From a virus (Duplodnaviria > Heunggongvirae > Uroviricota > Caudoviricetes), in IMG/VR virus record IMGVR_UViG_3300028454_001165, positions 1 through 64,000 of that record: a stretch of DNA of 64,000 nt, one strand, 5' to 3'. This document shows positions 8,550-55,424 of the stretch, piece by piece. The notes below the pieces were generated by a model. The model saw only the letters and a program-made list of their open reading frames with translations, ran no database searches and was not told the DNA's origin. Made by a program: the position numbers and the translations under genes. Position 1 is the stretch's first letter, and each line of letters starts with the position of its first letter.

Positions 8550-8564
8550 GAAAGGAGCTTCAAA

Positions 8565-9491
8565 ATGAATCTCAAAAACATCGGAAAAGGCATTGGCGAC
8601 TTCGGGAAGAAGATCGCTTTTTCCGCACGGAAACATTCCCCGGAACTCTTAACCGGAGGCGCGATCGCATTAGGAATCGGAACAGTCATCGCAACGTGGT
8701 TCGCGGCAAGAAAAACGGACAAAGCTCTCGAAGAGCCGAAGAAGATCATCAAAACGGCAAAAGAGATGCCCGTCAGCGAGTCCTATACGGAGGCAGACCG
8801 TAAGCATGACATCTGGCTCGGATATAAAAAAGGCGCCGTGCAGATCATAAAACTGTACGGACCGGTCACGCTTATGGGCGCGTCATCGATTGCCTGCATA
8901 CTCGGTTCTCACAGAATCCTGTCCAATCGCAACGCCGGTCTGATCGCGGCGAACAGTATCCTGTCGAAGGAATTCAGCGATTACCGGGATAAGGTGATCG
9001 AGAAGTATGGACGCGAGGAGGACTACAACCTGCGCTTCGCGGACAAAATGGAGACTGCCGAAGCAACTCTCAAAGAAGAAAACGGCGAAGAGAAAACGGT
9101 CACGGTTGAGAAGGCGAAGGAAGGGTATCAGCTCGACACGTTTTCGCGGTGTTTCGACGATACAAATCCGTGCTGGAAAAGGGATACACAGTACAATGCG
9201 ACGTTCCTCAAACAAATCATGTCGCAGATGACGGATAAGCTTCGGGCGGAACGCGTGCTTTGTCTGAACGAGGTGTATGATGCTCTCGGATTCGACAAAA
9301 CACAAGCTGGCTTTGAGTACGGATGGATCTGCAAGCCCGGTCAGGAGATGGAGGCATACGTGGACTTCGGAATCTATGACATGAACAAAGAAAGTGTCCG
9401 GGAATTCATCTACGGTCACAACAACAGTATCTGGCTGGACTTCAATTGCTCGAAGATCATCTGGGCTGAGACTCCGTTCAGGAAGGTGTGA
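8565..9491 (+). CDS. membrane protein, paralog family A (308 aa)
   Basis: RBS GAAAGGAGC. TM / linker / TM architecture. C-terminal FEYGWICKPG motif. Confidence 0.6.
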   Translation: MNLKNIGKGIGDFGKKIAFSARKHSPELLTGGAIALGIGTVIATWFAARKTDKALEEPKKIIKTAKEMPVSESYTEADRKHDIWLGYKKGAVQIIKLYGPVTLMGASSIACILGSHRILSNRNAGLIAANSILSKEFSDYRDKVIEKYGREEDYNLRFADKMETAEATLKEENGEEKTVTVEKAKEGYQLDTFSRCFDDTNPCWKRDTQYNATFLKQIMSQMTDKLRAERVLCLNEVYDALGFDKTQAGFEYGWICKPGQEMEAYVDFGIYDMNKESVREFIYGHNNSIWLDFNCSKIIWAETPFRKV

Positions 9492-30037: not shown

Positions 30038-30088
30038 CAGTCCCTCTTCTTTTTTTATGTATTTTATATTTGAAAAGGAGATTTGAAA

Positions 30089-30841
30089 ATGCCTAATCAC
30101 GTCAAAAATGTTATCACTGTTGAGAATGTAACGGAAAAGAGATTCAAGCAGATCAGCGAGTTTGTCGCATCGGAGAAACAGGCTTTCGATTTCAACAAGA
30201 TCGTGCCGATGCCGGAGGAATTGAATCTCGAAGAGGGAGGCGCGAACGATTTCTTCAAGGATTTATGGAAAAAATTTGGAGGCCTTATCGGATGCGATCC
30301 AGACCCGGACGCGGACTACAATGATATTCTCCATATGATGACAGCGTACGAACTCGACGCAGCGCGCAGGTATATCGAGGGACACGGCAGGAAAGACGGC
30401 GAGCCGATGAGCGATCTCAGCATCGTCAAGGAGGCCATGCGTCGCGGATACCAATATCTGCGAAACCGGGAGATGTACGGCGGATGTGAGACTTGGTACG
30501 GATGGTGCATAGAAAACTGGGGCACCAAATGGAATGCGTATTATATTTGCGAACCGGAGGACGAGGCTTTCGGCTGGGAGTTCAACACGGCTTGGAGCGC
30601 GCCGGAGCCTGTTTTGACGGTCCTCAGCGCTATTTTCAGGAATGCGCGGTTCATTCTGCGATATGCAGACGAGGATCTCGGACAGAATTGCGGAATCATC
30701 GTATTTGAGAACGGTGAGAAAGACGAGTTTCCGGCTTTGACGGAGGAAATCGCGTATCAGTTCGCCGTAAATCTGTGGAGATACAGCCCGGAAGATCTTG
30801 ACGATGAAGACGATGAAGACGATGAAGACGAGGAAGATTGA
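30089..30841 (+). CDS. conserved phage protein, paralog family B (PMPEEL...NWGTKWNA...FGWEF motifs) with poly-acidic tail (251 aa)
   Basis: GAAAAGGAGATTTG RBS. Shares more than 12 conserved blocks with the 31488 product. C-terminal DLDDEDDEDDEDEED. Confidence 0.6.
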   Translation: MPNHVKNVITVENVTEKRFKQISEFVASEKQAFDFNKIVPMPEELNLEEGGANDFFKDLWKKFGGLIGCDPDPDADYNDILHMMTAYELDAARRYIEGHGRKDGEPMSDLSIVKEAMRRGYQYLRNREMYGGCETWYGWCIENWGTKWNAYYICEPEDEAFGWEFNTAWSAPEPVLTVLSAIFRNARFILRYADEDLGQNCGIIVFENGEKDEFPALTEEIAYQFAVNLWRYSPEDLDDEDDEDDEDEED

Positions 30842-31487: not shown

Positions 31488-32228
31488 ATGCCTGCTTATA
31501 CGCGGAATCTTCTGACCGTGAGCGGAGTCAGTCCGAAGAGATTCGATCAGATGGCGCAGTTCGTCATGTCGCGGAAGACAGAGTTCGACTTCGATCTCAT
31601 TATTCCGATGCCGGAGGAGCTTGATATTTTCGACGCAAGCCGGAACGATGCGCTGGAAACCCTGTACAGACGGTACTGCACGCCGAGCTCCGAATGGTCG
31701 CGGGGGCTCGGCATCGATCGAAGGCTGTTCGAGGAGATCCGAATGAACGAAAAGACATGGCTTCTGTTCGGCTGCCCGAATCCGGGAGAACTGACTGCGG
31801 AAGACGCGCAGATCCTGTCGAGAAGTTTCAAGCTGTCTCACAGCGATGGCACGGAAGTCCCGGCTTTATATTTCGGGTGGCGGCTCACGGAGAACCGGAT
31901 CCTCTACGGCGCGCCGACTTGGTACCATTGGCGGATTTGCAACTGGGGCACACGATGGAACGCCATCAATCCGAAGGTACTGGAACACGGATTCGGCTGG
32001 GAATTCGATACCGTCCTCTCGCCCGCCGTACCGATCGCAAGAACACTGTCCGCCGTCTTTGTCGGCTGTGATATTTCGCTGAGCTACTCGGACGAAGATA
32101 TCGGCAGAGGGTGCGGGCAGGAGACGTACAACAGCGGACGCATGGCAAAGGAATTGATATTTGAAGACGGTTCCTGGAAAGCGCGAACGTTTGCGCTGAA
32201 GCTCTGGGACAAGGAAAGGATGAACTGA
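31488..32228 (+). CDS. conserved phage protein, paralog family B (246 aa)
   Basis: Same conserved blocks as the 30089 product: KRFDQ..QFV, FDFD.IIPMPEEL, NWGTRWNA, FGWEFDT.LSPA.P, YSDEDIGRGCG. Confidence 0.6.
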   Translation: MPAYTRNLLTVSGVSPKRFDQMAQFVMSRKTEFDFDLIIPMPEELDIFDASRNDALETLYRRYCTPSSEWSRGLGIDRRLFEEIRMNEKTWLLFGCPNPGELTAEDAQILSRSFKLSHSDGTEVPALYFGWRLTENRILYGAPTWYHWRICNWGTRWNAINPKVLEHGFGWEFDTVLSPAVPIARTLSAVFVGCDISLSYSDEDIGRGCGQETYNSGRMAKELIFEDGSWKARTFALKLWDKERMN

Positions 32229-33402: not shown

Positions 33403-33447
33403 CAACAGGGTCTCTTTCTCTTTTTATATTTGAAAAGGAGATTTGAA

Positions 33448-34098
33448 ATGTTCTGCAAGAAATCTGGGTATATCTCAGAATGGCCCGAAAACCTGATCGA
33501 GGAAATCCTTGAAAAGACCGTAGAGGAGCCTCTGACCGGCTGGCAGATCGACGGGCTGGAATGGATCCTCGGAAATCTGAACAAGAGAACGGGCGACATG
33601 ATCCGATACAAATTCAAGGACGGACTCACGCTGGAGGAGATCTCCGGCATCTTCGGCGTCGGGAAGGAAAGAGTCCGGCAGATCATCGCAAGAGGGATCC
33701 GGCTGATGCGGCATCCGTCGCGGACTGTTTATCTTTTGAAGGACTACAAGACCGTGACCGCCGACTACGAAGCGGAGCTTGCCCGGCTGACGCAGGAGAT
33801 CGGCGAACGTGAGGTGGAACTCGACCGGCTTGTGAAAAAGATCGCGGAGCTGAGCGAGAAGGCGGAAACGCTTGAGCCTGCGGCTTCGAGAGCGCAAAAC
33901 GCGGCTTTGCGTCTTCCAATCATCGATATGGATCTGAGCGCGCGGGCATACAACTCCCTTATTCGATGCGGAATGGATACGATCGAAGATGTTGTAAAGC
34001 GGTGGGGTGAAGATGAGCTGCACGGAATACGGAACTGCGGGGCGGTATCACGCGAAGAAATCCGGAGAAAGCTCATATCGTTTGGCGTACTGAATTGA
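33448..34098 (+). CDS. sigma-70 region-4-like HTH fused to an RNA polymerase alpha-subunit C-terminal-domain-like module (217 aa)
   Basis: LTLEEISGIFGVGKERVRQIIARGIRLMRH matches the sigma70 region 4.2 consensus. After a coiled-coil linker, IIDMDLSARAYNSLIRCGMDTIEDVVKRWGEDELHGIRNCGAVSREEIRRKL aligns to E. coli RpoA alpha-CTD ([48 protein letters not shown]). Confidence 0.6.
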   Translation: MFCKKSGYISEWPENLIEEILEKTVEEPLTGWQIDGLEWILGNLNKRTGDMIRYKFKDGLTLEEISGIFGVGKERVRQIIARGIRLMRHPSRTVYLLKDYKTVTADYEAELARLTQEIGEREVELDRLVKKIAELSEKAETLEPAASRAQNAALRLPIIDMDLSARAYNSLIRCGMDTIEDVVKRWGEDELHGIRNCGAVSREEIRRKLISFGVLN

Positions 34099-34131
34099 CA
34101 TTTGCAAGTAATCGTGGGGGGGGGTATCACG

Positions 34132-34386
34132 ATGAAAGTCATACTTGCCGGGGCGGCCGTTCTGCTGGCGTACCTGATCGGGATCATTGTCGGGCGGAAA
34201 AGCATTGCCGACGAATCGGAAGAATACGAACGGAGGATCCATGATCTGAAGGAAGAGATGCGGACATTGGACTGCGGTTATGCCGGGAGGGTCAAGGATC
34301 TGATCATGGAGCGGGAATTCCTTCGCGGGCAGATCGCGGAAATGAAACAGGTTCAGGATACGATTAGCGGCAAAAGAACGGATTGA
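34132..34386 (+). CDS. TM + coiled-coil small protein (84 aa); G9 tract serves as its RBS
   Basis: GGGGGGGGG at 34116-34124, 7 nt upstream of ATG. TM helix ILAGAAVLLAYLIGIIV. Confidence 0.5.
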   Translation: MKVILAGAAVLLAYLIGIIVGRKSIADESEEYERRIHDLKEEMRTLDCGYAGRVKDLIMEREFLRGQIAEMKQVQDTISGKRTD

Positions 34387-34410
34387 TATTTTTACAAAAG
34401 GAGAAAAGGC

Positions 34411-34740
34411 ATGAGAGTCTGGATACACAGGATCCGAGAGGATGAAACATACAAATTCATCCCGGACGCAGAGTTTACGAGAAGATACAGGGACGGCATT
34501 TACAGTAGGGAAGACCGGCTGAAACTTGAATGGACGCCGATCAAAGTCGAGATCCCGGAAAGCCTGAGCCCATCGGTCAATGCGGATGGAATCATGACGA
34601 TTGCTTGTCCCGAATCCGACGAACTGCGGGTAAATCTTGCGGAGGTTCTCACGGCGGACGGGGAAGGAAAACCCGTTCTTCTGTTCCTGCAGTCGGAGGA
34701 CAGGGCGATGGAATTTGCGCTGGAAGAAATCTTTTATTGA
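34411..34740 (+). CDS. hypothetical protein (109 aa)
   Basis: AAAAGGAGAAAAGGC RBS. Stop inside TTGATATTT. Confidence 0.5.
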   Translation: MRVWIHRIREDETYKFIPDAEFTRRYRDGIYSREDRLKLEWTPIKVEIPESLSPSVNADGIMTIACPESDELRVNLAEVLTADGEGKPVLLFLQSEDRAMEFALEEIFY

Positions 34741-34761
34741 TATTTGAAAGGGGTTTTGAAA

Positions 34762-35379
34762 ATGGGAAAGTTTCTTGCCGGGTGTGCGGTCGGGTTCGCC
34801 GGGGCTTCGGTTCTTGCGGCTGCGGCGGCGAAAAAGATATTTGAAGACGAGACTTTCGGCTATGCTCTTCGGTCGAGCATTGTCATGAAGGCGACCGGAT
34901 TCATCCGCGATCTTGTTTACGGGCGAGAGAGACTGAGAAAACGGCAATACTGTGAATACGTCGACTATTCGCGGGACGGGCGCGGGCACGGCTCATCCTG
35001 GCCGGGCGTGGAAACCGTCAAGGAGAAAGAAACCGATAAGGAAAAGCCGCATTCGGTGTTTCAGAAGTTTGATATTCTCGGACTGGAGGCGCTGTATTCC
35101 GAGGAGCGGGGAGAGCTCGAGGCTGAAGCGCAGGGGCTTGGATATACCGAAGGCGAGGACTTTTATATTTACTGGCTGCGCGGAGGAAAGGGCGACGATC
35201 CGGGCGAGATCGCTTCGGTCGAGCAGGCCTTTGTCGCGGTGAACTATGTTGCGACGGTCATGACGAAGGAGCCGATCTCATTCCCGGAAGGACGGAACTG
35301 GATGGATCTCTCGGAGAACGACTGGGGATTCCTGTCCGACGAGGGTGACATCACGGTATTTGAGTTTTTGGGGGATTGA
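34762..35379 (+). CDS. hypothetical protein with N-terminal hydrophobic segment (205 aa)
   Basis: GAAAGGGG RBS after a TTGATATTT junction. Stop inside the next TTGATATTT. Confidence 0.5.
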   Translation: MGKFLAGCAVGFAGASVLAAAAAKKIFEDETFGYALRSSIVMKATGFIRDLVYGRERLRKRQYCEYVDYSRDGRGHGSSWPGVETVKEKETDKEKPHSVFQKFDILGLEALYSEERGELEAEAQGLGYTEGEDFYIYWLRGGKGDDPGEIASVEQAFVAVNYVATVMTKEPISFPEGRNWMDLSENDWGFLSDEGDITVFEFLGD

Positions 35380-35436
35380 TATTTTCGCCGCGGTGTGGTA
35401 TAATGGATCTGCGATCCGAAAGAAAGGAGAAACGGT

Positions 35437-35703
35437 ATGCCTGAGTTGAGCAGGTTCGGCGGCATGGTGATCTATATGCTGTTCTATGACGTAAAGAAGC
35501 ACCATAAGCCGCATGTGCACGTGTATTACGGAGACTATGAGGCAACGGTCGCGATCGACGGGGAGCTTCTTGCCGGGGCTCTGCCGAGAAAGCAGCTGAA
35601 GATCGTCACGGGCTGGCTGGCGTTTTACGAAGAAGAGGCCTACAAGGCTTGGAATCTGGCGGTGCGGGGTGAGCACTTCGAGCAGATCCCGCCGATGAAC
35701 TGA
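35437..35703 (+). CDS. DUF4160-family protein (88 aa)
   Basis: HHKPHVHVYYGDYEA matches the H-x-PHFHV signature I recall for DUF4160. Partner DUF2442-like gene immediately downstream. Confidence 0.5.
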   Translation: MPELSRFGGMVIYMLFYDVKKHHKPHVHVYYGDYEATVAIDGELLAGALPRKQLKIVTGWLAFYEEEAYKAWNLAVRGEHFEQIPPMN

Positions 35704-35712
35704 GGTGAAAGC

Positions 35713-36009
35713 ATGTATATCGTGAATGATATTTGTTATGCCGGAGAGCTTGTCGAGGACATCCGGGTGACGGAGGTCAAACCTCTGCGGGGACGGATGA
35801 TGCTCGTGACGTTCTCCACGGGGGAGAAGCGTTTGTTCGACACGACGCTTCTGAAGGGCTCTGCGTTCGAGCCGCTGAAGGATGAAAAGATCTTCATGGC
35901 TCCGGTCCTGTTCCACGGGGTCATCACATGGAACAACGGGGAAATCGACATCGCGCCGGAGACGGTTTATGTCGAGAGCTACCCATATGAGGAGGCCGCC
36001 GTCGTTTGA
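35713..36009 (+). CDS. DUF2442-family protein (98 aa)
   Basis: Typical DUF2442 size and pattern (IRVTEVKPL....LVTFSTGEKRLFD). Canonical two-gene pairing with DUF4160. Confidence 0.5.
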   Translation: MYIVNDICYAGELVEDIRVTEVKPLRGRMMLVTFSTGEKRLFDTTLLKGSAFEPLKDEKIFMAPVLFHGVITWNNGEIDIAPETVYVESYPYEEAAVV

Positions 36010-36225
36010 TATTAACGGCAAAGGGTGACGGGAAAAGAGAAACGGGGTCGTGCGATTTGCATGGCCTCTTTCTTTTTGCCGCGCAGATTGATATTTATAG
36101 ACTTGTTTAGGAGATCGGGGGGGGGACTTGAGGTTGATTTGGCGAACTTTTGCGGGCGGTTTTCTATCTTAAGATAGTTCTCGAGGGATGCGAGATTGAT
36201 ATTTTGTACTTTTTAGGAGACGATT

Positions 36226-36480
36226 TTACTGGCCAATTTTATAGTTGTAAAAGTGGGCTTTGCCCACCCAAAATGCAGAAAATAATTAGTTTAACAAACT
36301 AACTGTCCGGAAAAAGTGGGCAACTGGCCACTTTTTTTTCAAAGTTGGCCAGCTGAAAACCGTTGTCTTTATTGGGTTTGAGGCTTCTCTGGCCAATTGG
36401 CCAACTTTTTTTTAATATTTCCGCGAAACGAAAAAATTCGTTTTTATATAATATAGAGAAAAAACTGGGCAAGTTGGCCA
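36226..36480 (+). repeat. iteron cluster: six TGGCCA copies (one as the 14-bp palindrome TGGCCAATTGGCCA) plus GTGGGCtttGCCCAC and AAGTGG...CCACTT palindromes and an AT-rich core
   Basis: TGGCCA at 36230, 36325, 36346, 36390, 36398, 36475. AT-rich 36404-36460 containing AACGAAaaaaTTCGTT. No ORF with RBS. Confidence 0.6.
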
Positions 36481-36594
36481 GCGTGGATTTTGAGGCTGTT
36501 TTCACAAGAAAAAGCGCGGCGGAGAGTCCGGTCGCGTTGATTGATATTTTCGGAGATTGAGGGGGGGGGGATGAACGCTTTCGTCGGACTGCGA

Positions 36595-36619
36595 CGCGAA
36601 AAAAACATGGGTCTTAATG
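36595..36619 (+). promoter_or_regulatory. CGCG-N16-TAATGG motif (copy identical to 37224-37248)
   Basis: gcgaCGCGaaaaaaacatgggtctTAATGGagaacatccaaaattactga, 46 nt identical to the downstream cassette. Confidence 0.45.
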
Positions 36620-36663
36620 GAGAACATCCAAAATTACTGATTTTTCAAAAGGAGTTTAGAACT

Positions 36664-36912
36664 ATGGCAAAGATCAATGCGAAGGAAATCGGAATGGCGT
36701 GCCTGACCGGTGCGAAGAAGATCTGGAAGCCTTTAACGGGCGTTATGATCGCTGCGGGAGCGGTGATCGGAACGTACCTGCTGGGGAAAAAAGAACTCGA
36801 CGCGGAGGAGGCGGCGGAAAACGAGAACCTGCTCGCGGACGGAGCTGAAGAAGAAACGACTGACGAAGAAAGCAACGAGGAAGAATCCGAAGAGGAGGAC
36901 GACGCTGAATAA
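36664..36912 (+). CDS. small TM protein with poly-acidic tail (82 aa)
   Basis: AAAAGGAGTTTAGAACT RBS. TM GVMIAAGAVIGTYLL. Tail ...EEESEEEDDAE. The last codons and terminator are duplicated at 37435-37475. Confidence 0.5.
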   Translation: MAKINAKEIGMACLTGAKKIWKPLTGVMIAAGAVIGTYLLGKKELDAEEAAENENLLADGAEEETTDEESNEEESEEEDDAE

Positions 36913-36937
36913 GCGTCCCCTCTTTCTTTTTTTTTTT
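36895..36937 (+). terminator. terminator hairpin GACGC-tgaataa-GCGTC + T-run (duplicated at 37443-37479)
   Basis: Stop codon TAA sits in the loop. T10 run follows. Confidence 0.5.
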
Positions 36938-36959
36938 GTGTGAGGATTGATATTTTTTG

Positions 36960-37175
36960 TTACTTTGAACGATGTTCTCTTTCGGACTTTTTTCGGAGGA
37001 GTTTTACGGCCTTCGCGACGGTAAGCCCGATCGATACCGCTATTCCGGCGGTGATGATTTTTTCGTTTGTGTTCAATTGGTTATAGGCGGCGTTCATGCT
37101 TCCGTATCCCCGCTTCATTTCTTTGGTAATCTGGGCGGCGTTCAGCTTTTTGCTCACGTCGGTCTCTCCGGGCAT
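36960..37175 (-). CDS. putative - strand membrane protein (71 aa)
   Basis: TATAAT -10-like element 13 nt upstream on the - strand, but no SD. TM helix IITAGIAVSIGLTVAKAV. Uncertain. Confidence 0.25.
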   Translation of the reverse strand: MPGETDVSKKLNAAQITKEMKRGYGSMNAAYNQLNTNEKIITAGIAVSIGLTVAKAVKLLRKKSEREHRSK

Positions 37176-37235
37176 TGATATTTACATGATTATATCATAG
37201 ACACGGAATAAATGCAAGGACAGCGCGAAAAAAAC

Positions 37236-37460
37236 ATGGGTCTTAATGGAGAACATCCAAAATTACTGAATGAAGGAGAAATAGAGATAAAAAGCTTGAA
37301 AAGTATCGTGCTTGGGAGTATCGGAGGCTTGGTGGGCGGGTTTACCGTTCTGCTATGGCTCTGGAGCAGACCGGACACGCTGACGGATGAGCTGAATGAA
37401 ATTCGCTCTGACATCAAAGCTTTGGAGGAATCCAAAAAGACGGAGGACGACGCTGAATAA
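37236..37460 (+). CDS. small TM protein with acidic C-terminus (about 75 aa; start ambiguous)
   Basis: Shares 5' flank and 3' end (EDDAE* plus terminator) with the 36664 cassette. TM helix IVLGSIGGLVGGFTVLLWLW. No clean RBS-ATG; the start may be the ATG inside the promoter-like motif or a downstream TTG/GTG. Confidence 0.3.
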   Translation: MGLNGEHPKLLNEGEIEIKSLKSIVLGSIGGLVGGFTVLLWLWSRPDTLTDELNEIRSDIKALEESKKTEDDAE

Positions 37461-37645
37461 GCGTCCCCTCTTTCTTTTTGCGGCGGGTGGGATTGATATT
37501 TCCGGGAATCGGGGGGGGGACGCGCAGATCGCATGGACTGTAATGAGAGAAGAACGAATATGCGCGTTCTGTTTCTCTTGCGTTTGATCCGCAAAAAAAA
37601 AGAGCCCGCGTTTCGGCACAGGCCCTTTTGTCCGCTTGCGCGGTA

Positions 37646-37750
37646 TCACTTCCGGTTTTCCACGGAAGCTCTGGCATCCGCCAGCTTTTCCGCAGCGATC
37701 TGCAGAGCAGCGATGATGCCTTCGAGATTTACTCTCCGGCGAGCTTTCAT
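37646..37750 (-). CDS. 34-aa - strand peptide with strong RBS
   Basis: AAGGAGGG 7 nt upstream of ATG. Sequence MKARRRVNLEGIIAALQIAAEKLADARASVENRK. Confidence 0.3.
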   Translation of the reverse strand: MKARRRVNLEGIIAALQIAAEKLADARASVENRK

Positions 37751-38049
37751 TTTTCAGCCCTCCTTTACGGTAGAATCTCTTCTCCTTTTCTACGAGTATT
37801 ATACCAAATTTCGGCGGGTTTGTCAAGCGGATTGCGGATCGGACGCAAAAAAGAACCTATGATCGGACACAGGTTCTTTCCGGGTTTCCTTCGGATGCGG
37901 GTGGGCGAACAATCAACACTGATTGATATTCGTACCGCTGGTTTCTCCTTTCAGTTTCGGCTGGCAACGGTCTGCGCGCAAGATCACCGATCATCCCAAA
38001 CTGAACGTCCGGCTCCGCATCCAATGGAAGCCCTACGGCTCTTAACCGC

Positions 38050-38136
38050 TTACCTTCGGCTGATGTAATTCAGCACGGCAACTACAGTCTGAATGAGACT
38101 GAGCACCAACATGATGATACCAATCAATTCAGTCAT
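38050..38136 (-). CDS. 28-aa hydrophobic peptide, type I toxin-like
   Basis: Sequence MTELIGIIMLVLSLIQTVVAVLNYISRR. Canonical promoter TTGCAA(38190-38195)-N17-TATAAT(38167-38172) on the - strand. Paralog of the 38660 peptide. Confidence 0.45.
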   Translation of the reverse strand: MTELIGIIMLVLSLIQTVVAVLNYISRR

Positions 38137-38659
38137 GTACACCGCTTTCCGTGTGCGCGCGAGAGCATTATAGCACATTCTCGGCGTCTTTGCAACCGGC
38201 AGGTTGAACAAAGATCGTTCGGGATCTGTGCGAAAAATAAGGAGAGGCGCATAGCTAACATACCCTCTTTATTTTTGCCGAGGATCCGGGGAAGGTGGTT
38301 TTCGAAATGCCCCCCCCCTGTTTTATTGATATTTTCAGACGGTCGGACGCGGCGGAAACATTTTCTGTTATGAAGAGAGGAGACAGAACGGGGTTTTGGT
38401 TCCCGTTTGATTTTGTCTTTCTTTTCGTCATTGATATTTTCGATGACGAAGAAAAAGGAGATACGCGCCAGACGCTGCCAAACAGCTTTTCCGTATAAAT
38501 GAATCACTTCATGTTCGGAACGGTCGGCGGGGTCTGCCGTACTGACGAAGAGCGGTTTCTTTCGCCGCGATTTGCTGCGCGGGATGAATGAGGAGGAAGT
38601 AGTTCATCCCCTACTTGAAATTGCAATGCGTCTTTACGGCGGATCCCCCTTTTTCAGCC

Positions 38660-38767
38660 TTACCGCTTACGGATTTGCATCACGCAAGCGACAACGGTGG
38701 CTAATGCCGACACGACTTCGCATACGGTCTGAACAAAGTCAAACACAAGCTGGATGTCAAACGTCAT
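38660..38767 (-). CDS. 35-aa hydrophobic peptide, type I toxin-like
   Basis: Sequence MTFDIQLVFDFVQTVCEVVSALATVVACVMQIRKR. GAAAGAAAGGGG RBS. Extended -10 TGcTAAAAT upstream on the - strand. Same MT...QTV...I(R/S)(K/R)R pattern as the 38050 peptide. Confidence 0.45.
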   Translation of the reverse strand: MTFDIQLVFDFVQTVCEVVSALATVVACVMQIRKR

Positions 38768-38860
38768 GGCGCGCCCCTTTCTTTCTACATGCGGGCGCAC
38801 GGATATTTTAGCACAGGTCGTCATCACTCGCGTGCACAATTTTCAGAAAGGAGAAACAAA

Positions 38861-39199
38861 ATGGCAAAAAAGAAAGAGAACCGGTTTCAGCGGGAAGTGA
38901 TTCAGGAGCTGAAAAGCCGGTTTCCGGGATGCGTCGTGATGAAGAACGCCACCGGGTTCCACGACGGGTTCCCGGACATTGTGATGTATCTCGGGCGCGT
39001 CTGGGCGATGCTCGAATGCAAGCGGGAGAAGGCGGCGAAGAAACGGCCGAACCAGCTGTACTGGGTGGACCGGATGGACGGGATGTCCTTCGCGCGGTTC
39101 ATTTACCCGGAGAACAGGGCCAAGGTCATGGCGGAGCTTGAGGCGTTCGTCGTGGCTTCTGTCGGCATTGATATTTCCGGCAGGAGGGACGCCGCATGA
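38861..39199 (+). CDS. VRR-NUC domain nuclease (112 aa)
   Basis: GFPDIVMY...AMLECK...QLYW matches the VRR-NUC PD-(D/E)xK signature (GFPDL...EVK...Q..W). AAAGGAGAAACAAA RBS. Confidence 0.55.
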   Translation: MAKKKENRFQREVIQELKSRFPGCVVMKNATGFHDGFPDIVMYLGRVWAMLECKREKAAKKRPNQLYWVDRMDGMSFARFIYPENRAKVMAELEAFVVASVGIDISGRRDAA

Positions 39200-39765
39200 G
39201 CTTCCAGTTCAACCGGCACGCGGAGATCGAGGGCAAGCACGCTTTTCTCTCGGCGTCGAAGTATCATTGGATCCGGTACGATGAAGCGAAGATGGCCGAC
39301 GTATTCCGCAATTTCTTCGCGGCGGAGCAGGGAACGCGGATGCACGATTTCGCGTCCCATTGCATTCGGATGGGACAGAAGCTTCCGCGGACGAAGCAGA
39401 CGCTCAACATGTTCGTCAACGACGCGGTGGAGTTCGGGATGTCCTCGGAGGTGGTGCTGTATTACAGCCGCAACTGTTTCGGGACGACGGACGCGATCGG
39501 TTTCCGGAATGGGGTGCTCCGCATTCACGACTACAAGAGCGGTGTGATCCCGGCGCATTTCGAGCAGCTCTTCGTCTACGCGGCTCTGTTTTGTCTGGAA
39601 TACGACGTTGCGCCGGAGGATATTCAGATCGAGCTGCGGATCTATCAGTCGGGTGAGATTCAGAAATGCAGGCCGGAGCCGGAGGTGATCCGGGAGGTCA
39701 TGCGGAAAGCGGTGGATTTTGACATGCTGATCGAATCCATCAAAGAGGAAGAGCGGGCCAATTGA
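39196..39765 (+). CDS. putative PD-(D/E)xK-family nuclease (189 aa)
   Basis: ATGA coupling to the VRR-NUC gene. TDAIGF...LRIHDYKSG resembles a D...(D/E)xK core. Low certainty. Confidence 0.35.
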   Translation: MSFQFNRHAEIEGKHAFLSASKYHWIRYDEAKMADVFRNFFAAEQGTRMHDFASHCIRMGQKLPRTKQTLNMFVNDAVEFGMSSEVVLYYSRNCFGTTDAIGFRNGVLRIHDYKSGVIPAHFEQLFVYAALFCLEYDVAPEDIQIELRIYQSGEIQKCRPEPEVIREVMRKAVDFDMLIESIKEEERAN

Positions 39766-39848
39766 TATTTGAAATAGGGGGTGGGATCGCCGGATGTGAC
39801 CCCCTCTTCTTTTTCATTGATATTTGCAAAGAAAGGCAGATTACAGCC

Positions 39849-42668
39849 ATGGATACGAAAAACGACGCGATCTACATCGATGAGGAAACCGGCGAGGTCT
39901 TGGATGACATGGATATTCTCGAGCACTACGGGATGCCCCGGCGGTCCGGGAGGTACCCGTGGGGTTCCGGGGACAATCCTTACCAGCGGACGGGGGATTT
40001 CATTTCCCGCGTGAACAAGATGAAGGCCGACGGCATGTCGGAGGGGGAGATCGCCCGCGAGCTTGAGATTGTGAACTACCGCGGCGAACCGTCCCCATCC
40101 CGGCTCAGAACGCAGCTCTCCGTCGCCAAGAATTACCGCCGCTCGCTTCTTGTAGAGCAGGCGAAGGACATGAAGGCGAAGGGTCTCGGAGCTACGGAGA
40201 TCGGCGAGAAGATGGGGCTGAACGAGTCTACGGTCCGCTCCCTTCTCAATACGAAGGCCGAAGCCCGGATGCTCGCGGCGTCCAACACGGCGAAATACCT
40301 CAAAGAGGAGATCGACAAGAACGGCATGATCGACGTTGGTTCCAGCGTGGAGCGAAAGCTCGGCGTGACGCGGACGACGCTCGACAACGCGCTGATGATC
40401 CTCGAAATGGAGGGATATCCGACTTACGGAGGACGGGTCCCTCAGGTGACGAACAAGGGGCAGATGACGACGCTCAAGGTGGTCTGCCCGCCGGGCGCTG
40501 AGAAAAAAGATATTTACGATTATGCGAAGATCCACCAGCTCGGAGACAGGATCTCGTCCGACGGAGGCGAGACCTTCGATCCGGTCTGGGTCTATCCGAA
40601 GTCGCTGGATTCGAAGCGGGTGCAGATCCGTTACGCGGAAGAAGGCGGCAAGGACAAGGACGGTGTGGTTGAGATCCGGCCGGGTGTGGAAGACGTTTCC
40701 CTCGGCGGCTCCTCTTACGCGCAGGTCAGGGTTCTGGTGGACGGGACGCATTACATCAAGGGCATGGCGGTTTACGGGGATCCGGCCGACTTCCCGGAGG
40801 GGGTCGACATGATCTTCAACACGAACAAGCACGTCGGGACGCCGATGCTGTCGGATGATCCGAACGCGAAGTGCGTGCTCAAGCCCATCGATAAGGCGAA
40901 TCCGACGAACCCCTTCGGGTCGCTGATCAAGGACGGCATCGTCGATCCTGACGACCCTTCGAAGAAGGAGGGCGGACAGCGGTACTACTACGACGAGAAC
41001 GGCGAGAAGCAGCTCTCCGTCATCAACAAGCGGGCCGACGCCGGGGATTGGAACGAATGGAGCCACGATCTCCCCTCGCAGTTCCTTTCGAAGCAGAACA
41101 ACAAGCTCGTGAAGCAGCAGCTCGATCTTGCGAAGATCGACAAGCAGAGCGAATACGAGGAGATCTGCGCATTGACGAATCCGACGGTGAAGAAGCATCT
41201 CCTTCTGAATTTCGCGAACGACTGTGATTCGGCGGCGGTGCATCTCAAGGCGGCCGCCCTTCCGAGGCAGCGGTATCAGGTGATCCTTCCCCTGACGACG
41301 CTCGGGGACGACGAGGTCTATGCTCCGAACTACAAGCCTGGGGAGAAGGTCGCGCTGATCCGGTATCCGCACGGGGGGACGTTCGAGATCCCGATCCTGA
41401 AGGTGAACAATAAGAATGCGGAGGGGAGGCGGGTGATCGGGCCCAATCCGCCGGATGCGGTCGGCATCAACGCGAAGGTCGCGGAGCGGCTCTCCGGGGC
41501 GGATTTCGACGGGGACACGGTCATGGTGATCCCGCTCTCCGGCAAGGCGAATATCACCTCTACGCCGACGCTTCCGGGGCTCGAAGGCTTCGATCCGAAG
41601 GAGCAGTACGGCGGGAAACCGGCAGGGACCTTCAAGCAGATGACGAAGCCCGGCACGCAGATGGAGATGGGGAAGGTTTCAAATCTCATCACCGACATGA
41701 CGATCGGGGGGGCCGGTCCGGAAGAGCTGGCAAAGGCGGTTCGCCACTCCATGGTGGTCATCGACGCATACAAGCACAAGCTGGATTACAAGCAGTCCGA
41801 AATCGACAACGATATCCCCGCCCTCAAACGCAGATGGCAGGGGCATACGACGGAGGACGGGCGGTATTCCACGGGGGCCGCCACGATCATTTCGCAGGCG
41901 AAGGGGCAGGCGAGCGTTCCGAAATACCGGGGGGTCCAGAAGATCGATCCCGAGACGGGCAAGCTCTACTGGGACAGCCGGAAGACGCCCGAGACCTATG
42001 TGGACAAGAACGGTAAGACGCAGACGCGAATGGTCCGCACCACGAAAATGGCGGCCACGGACGACGCGATGAAGCTGGTTTCGGAAGGCAGGACGCAGGT
42101 CGAGCTGCTGTACGCGGATTACGCGAACACGATGAAGTCTCTGGCGAACGACGCGCGAAAAGAATACGTTTCCGCAGGAAGGATCGAGCGCAGTTCCGAA
42201 GCCGCGCAGAAATATGCGGCCGAAGTGGCAAATCTTGAAGCGCAGCTGAACGTCGCAAAGCTCAACGAGCCGCGCGAACGTCAGGCGCAGCTGAACGCCA
42301 ACGCGAACATCAAGCTCTGGCTGGAGAAGAATCCCGACGCGACGAACGCCGAGATCAAGAAGCAGTCTCAGCGGGAACTCTCGAACGAGCGCGCAAAGCT
42401 CGGCGCGAAGAGAAGTCCGGTGAAGATCAGCCCCGAACAATGGGAGGCGATTCAGGCCGGAGCGGTTTCGGAAAACGTGCTGACGAACATCCTCAAGTAC
42501 ACGGACATTGATGTCGTCCGCGGCTACGCGACGCCTCGCGCTTCCAAAGAGCTGAGCGCGGTGAAGCAGGCGAGGATCCACGCGCTGCAGAACTCCGGCT
42601 ACACGAATCAGGACATCGCAGACGCGCTCGGCGTTTCGGTTTCGACTGTGCTGAACTATCTTGACTGA
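39849..42668 (+). CDS. large multi-HTH protein (940 aa)
   Basis: AAAGAAAGGCAG RBS. Three HTH-like segments (GMSEGEIARELEI; GLGATEIGEKMGLNESTVRSLLN; C-terminal GYTNQDIADALGVSVSTVLNYLD). N-terminal HYGMPRRSGRYPWGSGDNPYQ resembles the N-termini of the 45556 and 50539 products. Confidence 0.6.
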   Translation: MDTKNDAIYIDEETGEVLDDMDILEHYGMPRRSGRYPWGSGDNPYQRTGDFISRVNKMKADGMSEGEIARELEIVNYRGEPSPSRLRTQLSVAKNYRRSLLVEQAKDMKAKGLGATEIGEKMGLNESTVRSLLNTKAEARMLAASNTAKYLKEEIDKNGMIDVGSSVERKLGVTRTTLDNALMILEMEGYPTYGGRVPQVTNKGQMTTLKVVCPPGAEKKDIYDYAKIHQLGDRISSDGGETFDPVWVYPKSLDSKRVQIRYAEEGGKDKDGVVEIRPGVEDVSLGGSSYAQVRVLVDGTHYIKGMAVYGDPADFPEGVDMIFNTNKHVGTPMLSDDPNAKCVLKPIDKANPTNPFGSLIKDGIVDPDDPSKKEGGQRYYYDENGEKQLSVINKRADAGDWNEWSHDLPSQFLSKQNNKLVKQQLDLAKIDKQSEYEEICALTNPTVKKHLLLNFANDCDSAAVHLKAAALPRQRYQVILPLTTLGDDEVYAPNYKPGEKVALIRYPHGGTFEIPILKVNNKNAEGRRVIGPNPPDAVGINAKVAERLSGADFDGDTVMVIPLSGKANITSTPTLPGLEGFDPKEQYGGKPAGTFKQMTKPGTQMEMGKVSNLITDMTIGGAGPEELAKAVRHSMVVIDAYKHKLDYKQSEIDNDIPALKRRWQGHTTEDGRYSTGAATIISQAKGQASVPKYRGVQKIDPETGKLYWDSRKTPETYVDKNGKTQTRMVRTTKMAATDDAMKLVSEGRTQVELLYADYANTMKSLANDARKEYVSAGRIERSSEAAQKYAAEVANLEAQLNVAKLNEPRERQAQLNANANIKLWLEKNPDATNAEIKKQSQRELSNERAKLGAKRSPVKISPEQWEAIQAGAVSENVLTNILKYTDIDVVRGYATPRASKELSAVKQARIHALQNSGYTNQDIADALGVSVSTVLNYLD

Positions 42669-43397: not shown

Positions 43398-43525
43398 CGG
43401 TGCTTATACAGGCTCACAAGGAGATGCTCTGGCAGGCACATATGCCAGCTTCCTTTTCCTGTTTCTCCTTTCGGGAAGTGATATGAAGCAGTTTATTCTT
43501 GTCTTTGTGAGCCTGTATAAGCACC
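43398..43525 (+). repeat. perfect 21-bp inverted repeat (GGTGCTTATACAGGCTCACAA / TTGTGAGCCTGTATAAGCACC) separated by 86 nt
   Basis: Arms at 43398-43418 and 43505-43525. Sits in the non-coding 43215-43597 region with CTGAAATC / GAAAAATCT direct repeats. Confidence 0.6.
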
Positions 43526-43597
43526 GTAAAACTGATAGAAAGATATTTGAATTGGACATGAAAATCTATGAACTTTGATGAAAGGAAGGAGAAAAGT

Positions 43598-47689: not shown

Positions 47690-49438
47690 ATGGCGCTCTC
47701 GAATACGGCTGTGCCGAGGTACTACGGCGTGTTTCGGGACGCCGTGATTCGCGGGGAGATCCCGGTATGCAGAGAGATTTCCCTTCAGATGAACCGGATC
47801 GACTATCTGATCCGAAGCCCGAACTACTACTATGATCCCGCTCCGGTTGAAGGGTGGATCCGATTCTGCGAGAATGAGCTGACCCTGACGGACGGGTCCG
47901 ATCTCGCTCTTCTGCCGTCGTTCAAGCTTTGGGGCGAGGATCTGCTCGGGTGGTACTACTTCGAGGAACGGAGCGTTTATGAGCCCGGAACAAACGGACG
48001 CGGAGGACGGTATGTCCGCAAGAGGATCAAGAAACGACTGTGCCACAAGCAGTATCTGATCGTCGGGCGCGGCGCGGCAAAGTCCGTTTATGATTCCTCC
48101 GTACAGGCGTTTTTCCTGAATGCGGACTCCTCTACAACCCAGCAGATCACGACGGCTCCGACTATGAAGCAGGCGGACGAGGTAATGAGCCCGATCCGAA
48201 CGGCTATCACACGATCCCGCGGCCCTCTGTTCCGGTTTCTGACGGAAGGATCCATCCAGAACACGACCGGGTCGAAGGCAAAGAGGGTTAAACTGGCTCC
48301 GACAAAGAAGGGGATCGAGAACTTTCTGACGGGATCATTGCTTGAAATCCGTCCGATGAATACGGACAAGCTGCAAGGACTTCGATGCAAGGTGGCCACG
48401 ATCGACGAATGGCTGTCCGGGGATGTAAATGAGGACGTTGTGGGGCCGATCGAGCAGGGGGCTTCCAAGCTGGACGATTATGTGATCATCGCCACAAGTT
48501 CTGAGGGAACCGTTCGGAACGGAACCGGCGACTCCATCAAAATGGAGTTGATAAAGATCCTCAAAGGCGAATACATCAATCCGCACACTTCGATCTGGTG
48601 GTACAAACTGGACAGCTTGGAGGAAGTCGGCAAGCCGAACATGTGGCTGAAATGCAATCCGAACATCGGCAAGACTGTCTCTTATGAGACATATCAGCTT
48701 GACGTGGAACGGGCCGAGAAGGTTCCGTCCGCCAAAAACGATATTCTGGCAAAGCGGTTCGGGCTGGCTATGGAAGGCTACACATACTACTTCACCTATG
48801 AGGAAACCAAAGTGCATAGGCCGCGGGAGTTCTGGTCGATGCCGTGTTCTCTTGGAGCGGACTTGTCTTTGGGGGACGACTTCTGCGCTTTTACGTTCCT
48901 GTTTCCTCTGCCAGACGGATGCTTCGGCGTAAAGACGCGGGCTTACATCACATCGCTGACGATGAGCAAATTACAGGCGTCGCTCCGACAGAAGTACGAC
49001 GAATTCATGGCGGAAGGAAGTCTAATCGTCATGGAGGGAACGGTTCTCGATATGATCGACGTCTACGACGATCTGGACCGGCATATCGCGGAGAAAGAAT
49101 ACGACGTGCGGTGTTTCGGCTACGACCCGTATAACGCGCGGGAATTCGTGGAGCGGTGGACAACGGAAAACGGACCGTTCGGCGTGGAGAAGGTCATACA
49201 GGGCGCGAAGACGGAGAGCGTTCCGCTCGGCGAGCTGAAGAAGCTGGCGGGGGAGAGGATGCTGATCTTCGACGAGCAGATGATGACCTTTGCGATGGGG
49301 AACTGCATTGCGATCGAGGACACGAACGGAAACCGCAAGCTGATGAAGAAGCGGTACGACCAGAAGATCGACTCGGTCGCGGCCATGATGGACGCTTACG
49401 TGGCATACAAGGCCAACCGGGACGCGTTCGAGGGATAA
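47690..49438 (+). CDS. terminase large subunit (582 aa)
   Basis: Walker A LIVGRGAAKS. Walker B-like ATIDEW. C-terminal nuclease motif CSLGADLSLGDDFCAFTFLF. Confidence 0.85.
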   Translation: MALSNTAVPRYYGVFRDAVIRGEIPVCREISLQMNRIDYLIRSPNYYYDPAPVEGWIRFCENELTLTDGSDLALLPSFKLWGEDLLGWYYFEERSVYEPGTNGRGGRYVRKRIKKRLCHKQYLIVGRGAAKSVYDSSVQAFFLNADSSTTQQITTAPTMKQADEVMSPIRTAITRSRGPLFRFLTEGSIQNTTGSKAKRVKLAPTKKGIENFLTGSLLEIRPMNTDKLQGLRCKVATIDEWLSGDVNEDVVGPIEQGASKLDDYVIIATSSEGTVRNGTGDSIKMELIKILKGEYINPHTSIWWYKLDSLEEVGKPNMWLKCNPNIGKTVSYETYQLDVERAEKVPSAKNDILAKRFGLAMEGYTYYFTYEETKVHRPREFWSMPCSLGADLSLGDDFCAFTFLFPLPDGCFGVKTRAYITSLTMSKLQASLRQKYDEFMAEGSLIVMEGTVLDMIDVYDDLDRHIAEKEYDVRCFGYDPYNAREFVERWTTENGPFGVEKVIQGAKTESVPLGELKKLAGERMLIFDEQMMTFAMGNCIAIEDTNGNRKLMKKRYDQKIDSVAAMMDAYVAYKANRDAFEG

Positions 49439-53423: not shown

Positions 53424-55424
53424 ATGAAATACGATTTTTGCGGATGGGCCACGCGGAACGACATTCTGTGCACCGACGGCAGGACCATCCGAAAGGATGC
53501 ATTCAAGGACTGTGACGGAAAGACCGTCCCCCTTGTTTGGAATCATCAGCACAACGACCCTGAAAATGTTCTGGGCCACGCGGTCTTGAAGAACATGGAC
53601 GAGGGCGTTTTCGCCTACTGCTCTTTCAACAGTACGAGAAAAGGGCAGAGTGCCAAGCTTGCCGTTGAGCATGGCGATTATGATTCCCTGTCCATTTTCG
53701 CAAACAGGCTCAAGCAGGTCGGCGGTGATGTTCTTCACGGCGAGATCAAAGAGGTATCCCTCGTTCTGGCCGGGGCCAATTCCGGCGCGCATATCGTGGA
53801 TGTGATTCGTCACGGAGAAATCTCCGAGGACGAATTTGTTCTTTATGCGGGTGAGGAGATCAGCTTTGAGCACGCCGACGATGAGCAGAACGACCTTGAA
53901 GCCGCGAAGCCCGACGCGAAGACGGTGAACAAGGAAGAGAAGGAAGAGGCGGGCGATAAGGACAAAAAGAAGACCGTCCGTCAGGTCCTCGATACGTTCA
54001 CCGAGAAGCAGCAGATCGCCCTGTATTCCGTCATCGGAGATATTATCGAAGGCGATGAAGACGCGGAGGACGGGGACGCAGAGGGAAAAGAGGCCTCTCA
54101 CGCCGATTCCAAGAAGGAAGAGAACAGCAAAGAGGACGACGAGACGGTCGGCGACATTCTCGAAACGCTCAATGACGAGCAGAGAGAAGTTGCCATTGCC
54201 CTGATCGCACAGGCGATTAAGGACAAGGAATCCAAGAAAGCGAAGCACTCCGACGAGCCGGAGGAAGGGGACAAGCCCGCATCCGAGCCCGAAGAGGAGA
54301 TCAAACACAATTCTGAAAATACCGAAGGAGGTACTGAAATGCACGACAACATTTTTGAGCGCAACTACGAGAACACCGCCGTTGAGACCGAGGGGGTCCT
54401 TTCCCACTCCGAGCAGGTGAAGATTCTCACCGAGGCAAGAAACGGCAAGGGAAGCCTGCGGGACGTGGTTCTCCAGCACGGAATCACCGATATCAGCAAT
54501 GCATATCCCGACGCAAAGACCGTCGGCGATCAGCCTCAGACCATTACCGGGAATCTCGGCTGGGTCAAGGAGGTTCTGTCCGGGGTACGTCACGCGCCGT
54601 TCGGCCGCATCAAGACGCTCTTTGCCGATATGACTGCCGACGATGCCCGCGCTAAGGGTTATCTGACCAAGGGCACGCAGAAGATCGAGGAAATTCTCAG
54701 GCTCCTGAAGCGCGAAACCTCGCCCGCCAGAATCTACAAGCTCCAGAAGCTTGACAAGGACGATATCGACGACATCACCGACTTCGACATCGTCGCGTGG
54801 CTGAAGAAGGAGATGCAGGTAATGCTCGACGCCGAGGAAGCCCGCGCGATCCTGATCGGCGACGGCCGCGGTATCACCGCAAGCGATAAGATCGACGAGG
54901 AGAAGATCCGTCCGATCTGGACGATGGAGGATCTTTTCGCTATTCAGGCTACTGCCATGGTTGCCTCCAGCGCGACGGACGACGACATCGCGAAGGCCGC
55001 TATCCGTTCCGCCGTGAAGGGGTTCGACGACTATGACGGTTCCGGCAATACGATTTTCTTCGTCGCTTCCGACAGACTTTCCGATATGCTTCTGCTCGAG
55101 GACGACTACGGTCACAGACTCTACAAGACGAAGACTGAGCTCGCGGCCGCTATCGGCGTGGAGAAGGTCGTCGGGGTTCCCGTCATGAAGAACAAGACCC
55201 GCACGGTCACCATCAGCAGTGTGGACCATACCCGCAATCTTGTCGGCATTATTGTCGATATGGCCGATTACACCGTGGGTCAGACCAAGGGCGGTCAGAC
55301 CAGCTTCTTCGACGACTTCGACCTCGACTTCAACAAGATGGAGTATCTGCTTGAGAAGAGAGAGTCCGGCACTCTTGTGAAGCCGAAGTCCGCCATCGTT
55401 CTCGAATACGAGCTGGGAAACTGA
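53424..55424 (+). CDS. fused prohead protease (S78-like) - acidic scaffold-like linker - HK97-fold major capsid protein (666 aa)
   Basis: N-terminal VPLVWNHQHNDPENVLGHA resembles S78 prohead protease (LLWQHD..PIG). Roughly 200-aa D/E/K-rich linker. C-terminal 300 aa with HK97-like blocks (ILIGDGRG..., TKTELAAAIGVEKVVGVPVM). Confidence 0.65.
   Translation: MKYDFCGWATRNDILCTDGRTIRKDAFKDCDGKTVPLVWNHQHNDPENVLGHAVLKNMDEGVFAYCSFNSTRKGQSAKLAVEHGDYDSLSIFANRLKQVGGDVLHGEIKEVSLVLAGANSGAHIVDVIRHGEISEDEFVLYAGEEISFEHADDEQNDLEAAKPDAKTVNKEEKEEAGDKDKKKTVRQVLDTFTEKQQIALYSVIGDIIEGDEDAEDGDAEGKEASHADSKKEENSKEDDETVGDILETLNDEQREVAIALIAQAIKDKESKKAKHSDEPEEGDKPASEPEEEIKHNSENTEGGTEMHDNIFERNYENTAVETEGVLSHSEQVKILTEARNGKGSLRDVVLQHGITDISNAYPDAKTVGDQPQTITGNLGWVKEVLSGVRHAPFGRIKTLFADMTADDARAKGYLTKGTQKIEEILRLLKRETSPARIYKLQKLDKDDIDDITDFDIVAWLKKEMQVMLDAEEARAILIGDGRGITASDKIDEEKIRPIWTMEDLFAIQATAMVASSATDDDIAKAAIRSAVKGFDDYDGSGNTIFFVASDRLSDMLLLEDDYGHRLYKTKTELAAAIGVEKVVGVPVMKNKTRTVTISSVDHTRNLVGIIVDMADYTVGQTKGGQTSFFDDFDLDFNKMEYLLEKRESGTLVKPKSAIVLEYELGN

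Follow-up and report, generated by a model that had tools for sequence, protein, structure and literature searches.

How two adjacent small genes with unrelated coding cores come to lie between identical flanking sequences is the question raised by a locus in a 64,000-nucleotide (nt) stretch of Caudoviricetes DNA (IMG/VR record IMGVR_UViG_3300028454_001165, positions 1 to 64,000), the whole of which is called the window below. The two genes, P1 and P2, are each preceded by the same 5' flank, and each ends in the same 3' flank (Table 1). It is likely, in our view, that these flanks are regulatory signals which double as recombination sites, in a manner resembling the promoter-early stem-loop (PeSL) cassettes of T4-type phages and the morons of temperate phages.

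Exact repeats around unrelated genes

The 5' flanks form an exact direct repeat of 46 nt and the 3' flanks one of 38 nt. No other exact direct repeat in the 64-kb window is as long: the next measures 27 nt, and in ten shuffles of the window the longest exact repeat was 14-17 nt. Both had been noticed in an earlier reading of the bare letters (the sequence-only reading). Its 46-nt 5' repeat is exact, although the 47-nt string that it quoted fits copy 2 only; its 3' repeat is exact as well, but the coordinates offered for it (36888-36925 and 37435-37472) need to be raised by 6-7 nt, and the quoted length of about 36 nt corrected to 38. The base preceding the 46-nt repeat is a in copy 1 and g in copy 2. 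The third exact repeat of the window, of 27 nt (TTTTATATTTGAAAAGGAGATTTGAAA, 30062-30088 and 33422-33448), is an identical leader with ribosome-binding site before the genes at 30083 and 33430.

The cores between the repeats, 36641-36893 (253 nt) and 37270-37441 (172 nt), show no similarity in a sensitive local alignment (z = 0.8), and BLASTP between them finds the C-terminal EDDAE only. Each encodes a protein with one hydrophobic 17-mer (Kyte-Doolittle 1.89 in P1 and 2.12 in P2); the sequence-only reading had described different small transmembrane proteins between the flanks. Both cassettes, with the same flanks, are spanned by contigs of three other samples (L005, L010 and L011), and the repeats are shorter than the reads and the assembly k-mers; the two-cassette layout is therefore not an assembly artefact.

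P1 is preceded by a ribosome-binding site, AAAGGAG (36648-36654), 9 nt before its ATG, and the identical protein is present in other assemblies. The corresponding site of P2, GAAGGAG (37272-37278), lies 8 nt before a start codon (37287-37289) that reads ATG in L005, L010, L011 and a further contig, L086, and ATA in the window; in the window genome P2 is probably poorly translated or decaying. Between the two cassettes lies the spacer S, which was found only in the near-identical relatives L005, L010 and L011, is absent from the related contig L004, and has no similarity to neighbouring sequence. The spacer carries an antisense open reading frame (ORF) that encodes one hydrophobic segment and is preceded, on the minus strand, by a candidate promoter composed of TTGCAT (37217-37212), a 17-nt spacer and TG-a-TATAAT (37194-37189). 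A simple flank-core-flank cassette, as first pictured, does not describe this arrangement, since the unit also holds a 292-nt spacer with a divergent antisense gene.

Homologue searches with P1, P2 and the antisense ORF returned their own clusters only. P2 and the antisense ORF had no homologues in a database of 5.8 billion proteins and no match in Pfam or PHROGs. P1 gave weak matches to Rz-like spanin families (E about 1e-3), which we attribute to its hydrophobic segment and charged tail. Two possibilities were tested and discarded, namely that the three proteins are diverged or inverted paralogues and that core 2 or the spacer derives from neighbouring DNA.

Table 1. Features of the cassette locus and other genes named in the text (positions in the window)
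Feature	Position	Strand	Description	Basis
Motif 1 (ATTGATATTT)	36540-36549	+	45 nt upstream of 5' flank copy 1	
5' flank, copy 1	36595-36640	+	CGCG box 36595-36598, putative -10 slot CTTAAT 36613-36618, first ~20 nt of P1 leader	
P1	36664-36912	+	82 amino acids, one hydrophobic segment, acidic tail	ORF, orthologues, hydropathy
3' flank, copy 1	36894-36931	+	last 5 P1 codons (EDDAE), stop TAA 36910-36912, hairpin 36901-36917, then CCCCTCTTTCTTTTT	
548-nt unit	36932-37479	+	spacer, 5' flank copy 2, P2, 3' flank copy 2	
Spacer S	36932-37223	.	292 nt; T-run, motif 1 at 36946-36955 and 37174-37183, antisense ORF	
Antisense ORF	36960-37175	-	71 amino acids from ATG, 65 from GTG (GGAGAG before)	gene call in three assemblies
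5' flank, copy 2	37224-37269	+	exact copy of P1 promoter-like motif and early leader	
P2	37287-37460	+	57 amino acids, one hydrophobic segment	ORF; own cluster only
3' flank, copy 2	37442-37479	+	last 5 P2 codons (EDDAE), stop, hairpin 37449-37465, then CCCCTCTTTCTTTTT	
Motif 1 (ATTGATATTT)	37492-37501	+	after 3' flank copy 2	
Sigma-region-4/alpha C-terminal domain fusion protein	33430-34098	+	222 amino acids	domain matches
YonO-type single-subunit RNA polymerase (predicted)	39858-42668	+	936 amino acids	phrog_4291 match, GADFDGD
TerL gene	47690-49438			
Capsid gene	53424-55424		Phage_capsid family (PF05065)	

Probable regulatory character of the flanks, and their origin

The 3' flank is predicted to be an intrinsic terminator that overlaps the stop codon. 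Its hairpin has the form GACGCT-GAATA-AGCGTC, in which the codons GAC GCT GAA TAA (D A E stop) supply the 5' arm and the loop; together with the purine-rich upstream codons it folds at -19.5 kcal/mol in copy 1 (z = -3.75) and -19.9 kcal/mol in copy 2 (z = -3.48), and a terminator scan scored both copies as terminator-like (hairpin plus U-run). Four exact copies of the terminator tail CCTCTTTCTTTTT are found in the window, where chance would give 0.12 even with one mismatch tolerated, and each terminator with this tail is followed about 10 nt further on by the sequence ATTGATATTT (motif 1), giving four terminator plus motif-1 modules at 36060-36096, 36894-36955, 37442-37501 and 39790-39825.

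Motif 1 itself is found in 24 exact copies (10537-39825), where 0.21 would be expected in the window, and 23 of the 24 are on the plus strand. The sites are at gene ends or intergenic, usually 15-60 nt before the next start codon, and the structural gene block contains a single copy, on the minus strand. Variants are present in relatives (TGGATATTT in L017, GATGATATTT in L023 and TTATATTTG in L034, with the core [G/T]ATATTT), and sites were also found in L016. Motif 1 may be a phage-specific promoter or binding site. A role of the TGA inside it as a translation-termination signal was rejected, since sites are found in every frame and even within ORFs. At the DUF4160/DUF2442 gene pair (35376-36009), which lies behind a canonical TTGATA-17-TATAAT promoter, the -35 hexamer is supplied by motif 1.

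The 5' flank belongs to a promoter-like family of the form CGCG-N13-TCTTAATGG (motif 2; consensus CGCG-aAAAtTACATG-n-cTCTTAATGGA), of which relaxed searches found 12 plus-strand copies in the window and 21 in related contigs. All copies are intergenic and point in the same direction as the genes, and each is followed after 18-53 nt by a ribosome-binding site and start codon. Several follow directly on an intrinsic terminator (at 2949 and 4156 in the window, and four in L002), and a gene downstream of such a copy therefore needs a transcription start of its own. The -10 slot reads CTTAAT in 19 of the 33 family members and TATAAT, at exactly the same position, in three; two members carry a TTGACG whose last two letters coincide with the CG of the CGCG box, which leaves a 16-nt spacer and fits a -35/-10 register. 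Folding of the 5' flank was no better than that of shuffled sequences (z = 0.18) and Rfam returned no match, so that a structured RNA was ruled out. Because of the intergenic placement, the copies behind terminators, the TATAAT/TTGACG register and this lack of RNA structure, the 5' flank is probably a promoter with early leader. Its use may need a phage factor, either the phage RNA polymerase or the sigma-region-4/alpha C-terminal domain protein (33430-34098). Eight of the 11 correctly called products behind motif-2 copies are 25-84 amino acids long, and about half have a hydrophobic segment. The upstream open reading frame MENIQNY that the sequence-only reading had placed in this flank is there as letters; we rejected it, because it lacks a ribosome-binding site, differs in frame and length from one family member to the next, and takes its ATGG from the conserved DNA motif.

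Far from being unique cassette ends, as had been supposed, the flanks are members of genome-wide regulatory families (the 12 promoter-like copies and several terminators of the same type). Membership does not entail identity, however: other pairs within the motif-2 family have a mean identity of 55% over the 46 nt (maximum 76%) and of 34% in the leader part. Since other pairs average so little, the 100% identity of the two 5' flanks points to recent copying or conversion and would not be explained by constraint.

The relatives indicate which gene the signals came from. In L016, L017 and L018 an orthologue of P1 (36-42% identity) stands ahead of the same nuclease genes, and before it come the same motif 2 and a conserved leader (…TCTTAATGGAnACAATCCAAAAT…TTTCAAAGGAG…ATG); in L016 and L018 the same hairpin sequence stands behind the orthologue, and the proteins end in (D/G)DAE. 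Judged by these comparisons, both flanks are native to P1. The 46-nt identity of the P2 leader ends just before P1's own ribosome-binding site, and the 3' end of P2 is P1-like over about 55 nt, of which the final 38 match exactly, whereas the roughly 17 nt upstream have drifted apart and include a 3-nt indel. Outside near-identical relatives no copy of P2, the spacer or the antisense ORF was found. As the P1 orthologues share both flanks while P2, spacer and antisense ORF have no homologues, P2 appears to be a chimera in which P1 signals frame foreign or new DNA. The proposal of conserved flanks around an unrelated core thus holds, with the ends of P1 conserved in L016, L017 and L018 and P2 without relatives.

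Copy states of the unit and competing explanations

The spacer, 5' flank copy 2, P2 and 3' flank copy 2 make up a 548-nt unit whose presence varies. L004 (Logan SRR17284438), which is 96-97% identical to the window and aligns to 34116-36928 and 37424-41470, lacks exactly these 548 nt; P1 and one 38-nt terminator copy are followed directly by region D. A third state is seen in L086 (ENA ERZ27247021, 607 nt), which consists of window positions 36894-37479 plus 21 nt identical to 36932-36952, with its first 59 nt equal to its last 59 nt, and represents the unit in circularly permuted form. Its junction, from the end of P2 through the flank to the start of the spacer, is missing from the window and from all other contigs. 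This junction is the expected product of a crossover between the flank copies, namely an excised circle or a tandem duplication, and the deletion form would be the reciprocal product. Because the 38-nt repeat is shorter than the 59-nt overlap (a MEGAHIT k value), reads across the junction should exist; the exit into region D is missing in the sample of L086 because its contigs stop at about 37543, beside a poly-G run. We are somewhat inclined to take L086 for real molecules. The unit is accordingly recorded as absent (L004), in one copy (the window, L005, L010 and L011) and duplicated or circular (L086).

Homologous recombination at the flanks, as put forward in the sequence-only reading, is supported by the exact absence of the unit from L004, with a single flank copy at the junction, and by the reciprocal junction in L086. 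That reading had, however, envisaged the exchange of a core between fixed flanks at one site, and what is seen instead is that an entire unit next to P1 has been gained, lost or duplicated. The 84 nt of flank contain zero differences, against a divergence of 3-4% from L004, which mildly favours a recent gain or conversion.

The same pattern recurs in other relatives. In L002 short genes stand in a row, every one of them preceded by the motif and closed by a terminator; two of these terminators are 83% identical. The more distant relative L017 has, at 1-1040, two adjacent units with a common 111-nt upstream repeat (87%), the motif (85%) and terminators of the family, and with different small proteins inside, which carry a hydrophobic segment. 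L017 and L018 share a block of 96% identity whose left edge is a motif-1 site behind a terminator, beyond which their DNA is unrelated, and the segment from P1 to the endonuclease gene is different in every relative. The pattern of flank-bounded units is general in this phage group.

We propose that the expression signals of the conserved gene P1 were reused for a second, unrelated ORFan, P2, and that P2 together with the spacer and the divergent antisense gene would form a self-contained 548-nt unit placed right after the P1 terminator. Because both flanks belong to motif families repeated across the phage and its relatives, the repeated regulatory motifs would offer short homology for general recombination, through which units could be added, deleted or duplicated with the neighbouring genes undisturbed. 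As to history, the spacer, followed by a P1-type cassette in which P2 had taken the place of the core, may have been present in a related phage, and an exchange within the shared terminator/motif-1 module would then have put that block behind the P1 terminator in the window lineage.

Several points weigh against this explanation. The most frequent -10 slot, CTTAAT (19 of the 33 members), has no A at -11, which is normally needed by sigma-70-type factors, and the motif-2 family has no conserved -35, so that host polymerase alone may not use the motif; the promoter activity of motif 2, and the polymerase or sigma factor that would read it, are deduced from sequence. L086 is an inference from an assembly graph and could represent a tandem duplication, a circle or possibly a local-assembly artefact. 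One large indel alone was available between close relatives, and the difference from L004 could be a gain or a loss, the direction and history of the event being our reconstruction. A single step from an L004-like ancestor needs a donor with the arrangement spacer-flank-P2-flank, and no such donor was found.

The alternative that survives best, though it is unlikely, is that the whole P1 cassette was duplicated in tandem, that foreign DNA then took the place of the core in the duplicate, and that the spacer was inserted separately, which would make the flanks leftovers that do not serve as preferred exchange sites. This history explains why the P2 cassette has P1-derived sequence at either end (the 46-nt promoter and leader on one side, and on the other the approximately 17 nt of diverged coding sequence upstream of the 38 nt) as well as recombination at the repeats does. 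It takes more steps, however, at least three events, and the 292-nt spacer lies outside any duplication and is unrelated to nearby sequence; it also leaves unexplained why the L004 breakpoint, the L086 junction and the boundary of the L017/L018 block all fall at these motifs. Such a duplication is compatible with recombination at the regulatory repeats if taken as the origin of the chimeric P2 gene.

That the identity is kept solely by selection for identical regulation of two co-expressed genes, recombination being incidental, is improbable. Both flanks are of regulatory type and the product of either gene is a small protein with a hydrophobic segment, as such selection would have it, but the other family members stand before similar genes with 55% identity overall and 34% in the leader, so function needs no identity, and the indel and the L086 junction contig show exchange at the repeat. 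Less credit still can be given to a site-specific, integron-like system in which the 38-nt hairpin serves as the site of a dedicated recombinase. The sequence of the hairpin, beyond its structure, is conserved across relatives, and a circularly permuted contig of the unit exists; integron cassettes, however, are promoterless, end in an attC site and are moved by an integron integrase, whereas the cassettes here have their own promoter-like element and the repeat has the form of a plain terminator with a U-run. No recombinase or integrase was present among the neighbours examined, a PD-(D/E)XK nuclease and an endonuclease-/resolvase-like protein, the whole window not having been screened for integrases.

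A coding role of the shared 5' sequence, by which P1 and P2 would have the N-terminal MGLNGEHPKLL and the C-terminal peptide in common around a variable middle, is more improbable again. An ATG in each copy, at 36608 and 37236, begins a frame that continues into the downstream gene with no stop in between, but this ATG lacks a ribosome-binding site, whereas strong sites precede 36664 and 37287, the starts used by gene callers and relatives; in L018 the same frame reaches a stop before the gene, and frames differ among the family. An assembly in which the repeats were collapsed or misjoined, the weak point named in the sequence-only reading, has next to no probability, for although many metagenome contigs break in the region, the breaks coincide with poly-G runs, and L005, L010 and L011 carry both cassettes with the same flanks across repeats shorter than the reads.

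A bolder form of recombination at the regulatory repeats, possible but doubtful, is that the 548-nt unit is an actively moving cassette, with crossovers in the 38-nt terminator repeat excising it as a circle, or duplicating it, often enough to appear in a metagenome assembly. If true, PeSL-like shuffling would take place in gut and rumen Firmicute prophages and give small-protein ORFans ready-made expression signals, and the phage nuclease and resolvase-like genes just downstream could possibly assist.

Known systems and genomic setting

PeSLs are mobile regulatory cassettes of T4-type phages (Arbiol et al. 2010, PMC2839356; Comeau et al. 2014, PMC4122927). An ORFan of RB49 lies between two promoter/stem-loop motifs where phi1 has a single motif, and mini-circles were obtained by inverse PCR; the promoter part proved a strong sigma-70-like early promoter in reporter assays, and homologous recombination between motif copies, able to release a circle, was the proposed mechanism (PMC2839356). 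The locus resembles PeSLs in its repeated promoter-like and terminator motifs among small, mostly ORFan genes of a variable region, and in an indel bounded by motif copies of which one is left in the shorter genome (548 nt and a single 38-nt flank in L004); evidence of the same type defines PeSLs (PMC2839356). The differences are several. The carrier is an integrated prophage of a Firmicute with a YonO-type RNA polymerase and not a lytic T4-like myovirus; the promoter-like and terminator parts are separate and bracket the gene as 5' and 3' flanks; most promoter-like copies are without a canonical -10; the terminator overlaps the stop codon, so that an exchange also moves the last five codons and with them the C-terminal tail; and promoter, terminator and circle are, for the present locus, predictions from sequence. 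PeSLs have been reported almost only for T4-like phages in the searchable literature.

Classical morons of temperate phages, described by Hendrix and colleagues, are thought to arrive by illegitimate recombination, independent of conserved flanks. The unit is moron-like as an extra accessory gene with its own terminator between genes that are adjacent in L004. A copy of the promoter-like motif lies at 37224-37249, and the G+C content is somewhat lower than that of the phage (0.451 against 0.508), but the neighbouring non-coding stretch 36010-36594 is at 0.434. The unit differs in that both flanks copy the signals of the resident gene and the breakpoint lies inside the repeat. According to the modular theory of the evolution of lambdoid phages, short conserved boundary or linker sequences at gene borders are preferred sites of homologous exchange between unrelated modules. 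Such linkers are usually seen between genomes, whereas the repeats here are 0.55-0.63 kb apart in one genome and give copy-number variants of the unit. The host-takeover module of SPO1, with many small genes that each have a strong early promoter and a terminator, offers a likeness as a dense run of short independent transcription units in a Firmicute phage; we know of no described role of its repeated signals in gene shuffling.

The locus would then represent a known route of phage gene shuffling in a new group, an uncultured rumen-type Ruminococcaceae prophage. Recombination linkers built from repeated promoter and terminator motifs for small accessory genes, documented chiefly in T4-like phages that infect Gram-negative bacteria, would thereby gain a further setting. 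The copy states of the unit form a natural series, and the locus would illustrate how an ORFan can acquire expression signals by borrowing from a resident gene. Candidate promoter and terminator motifs are also supplied for annotating the poorly known group of phages with YonO-type polymerases.

The window is a prophage adjoining a host aminoacyl-tRNA synthetase gene. In the protein database, both P1 and the antisense ORF appear as proteins of a Ruminococcaceae bacterium metagenome-assembled genome (MAG; 543-kb contig), and their NCBI names are MAG Ruminococcaceae E7576_07135 for P1 and E7576_07140 for the antisense ORF. The annotated phage collection contained no close relative, DNA similarity to known phages being limited to one nuclease gene, and the LPD28 protein as a query against genome contigs found no relatives. 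The exact flank strings were absent from the viral, metagenome and genome contig collections searched, and Rfam and tRNA scans of the window returned nothing.

Just 3' of the locus are an endonuclease-/resolvase-like gene, a PD-(D/E)XK nuclease gene and the gene of a 936-amino-acid protein. The last has a full-length match (E = 0) to phrog_4291, annotated as 'RNA-dependent RNA polymerase', a GADFDGD motif, and helix-turn-helix/sigma region 4-like domains at both termini; a search of PDB sequences gave no match. On account of the full-length PHROG match and the GADFDGD motif it is assigned, as a prediction, to the YonO-type single-subunit RNA polymerases. Which promoter YonO recognises was still undetermined in PMC5467207. 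The 222-amino-acid protein encoded at 33430-34098 joins sigma-70 region 4 (residues 47-95) to an RNA polymerase alpha C-terminal domain (residues 155-215), an unusual fusion through which host polymerase may be redirected to phage motifs. The two perfect 22-nt arms of an inverted repeat, about 90 nt apart, are found downstream of the gene for the YonO-type polymerase (43398-43526).

The non-coding region 5' of P1 (36230-36490) is dense in TGGCCA and GTGGGCA-type repeats of iteron- or operator-like appearance, as are L017:1140-1620 and L018:1-120, and a 29-nt element within it (36356-36384) is 96% conserved in L016, L017 and L018 with its orientation relative to P1 reversed. Runs of G9-G14 at 34116, 36117, 36561, 37511 (plus strand), 38310 and 47618 (minus strand) lie shortly after motif-1 sites or before start codons; G8 has 17 matches in the window against 2.1 expected, and several metagenome contigs end beside such runs. 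Paralogous sets comprise three DUF6353 proteins (5207-6025, 7130-7945 and 8565-9491, all within 5207-9491) and two DUF1281_C-domain proteins (30083-30841 and 31488-32228). Two near-perfect sigma-70 promoters on the minus strand, at 37798-37826 (TTGACA-17-TATAAT) and 38167-38195 (TTGCAA-17-TATAAT), face a 34-amino-acid ORF (37750-37646) and a hydrophobic peptide of 28 amino acids, MTELIGIIMLVLSLIQTVVAVLNYISRR, inside the ORF 38050-38211; these may be lysogen-expressed genes or a small toxin.

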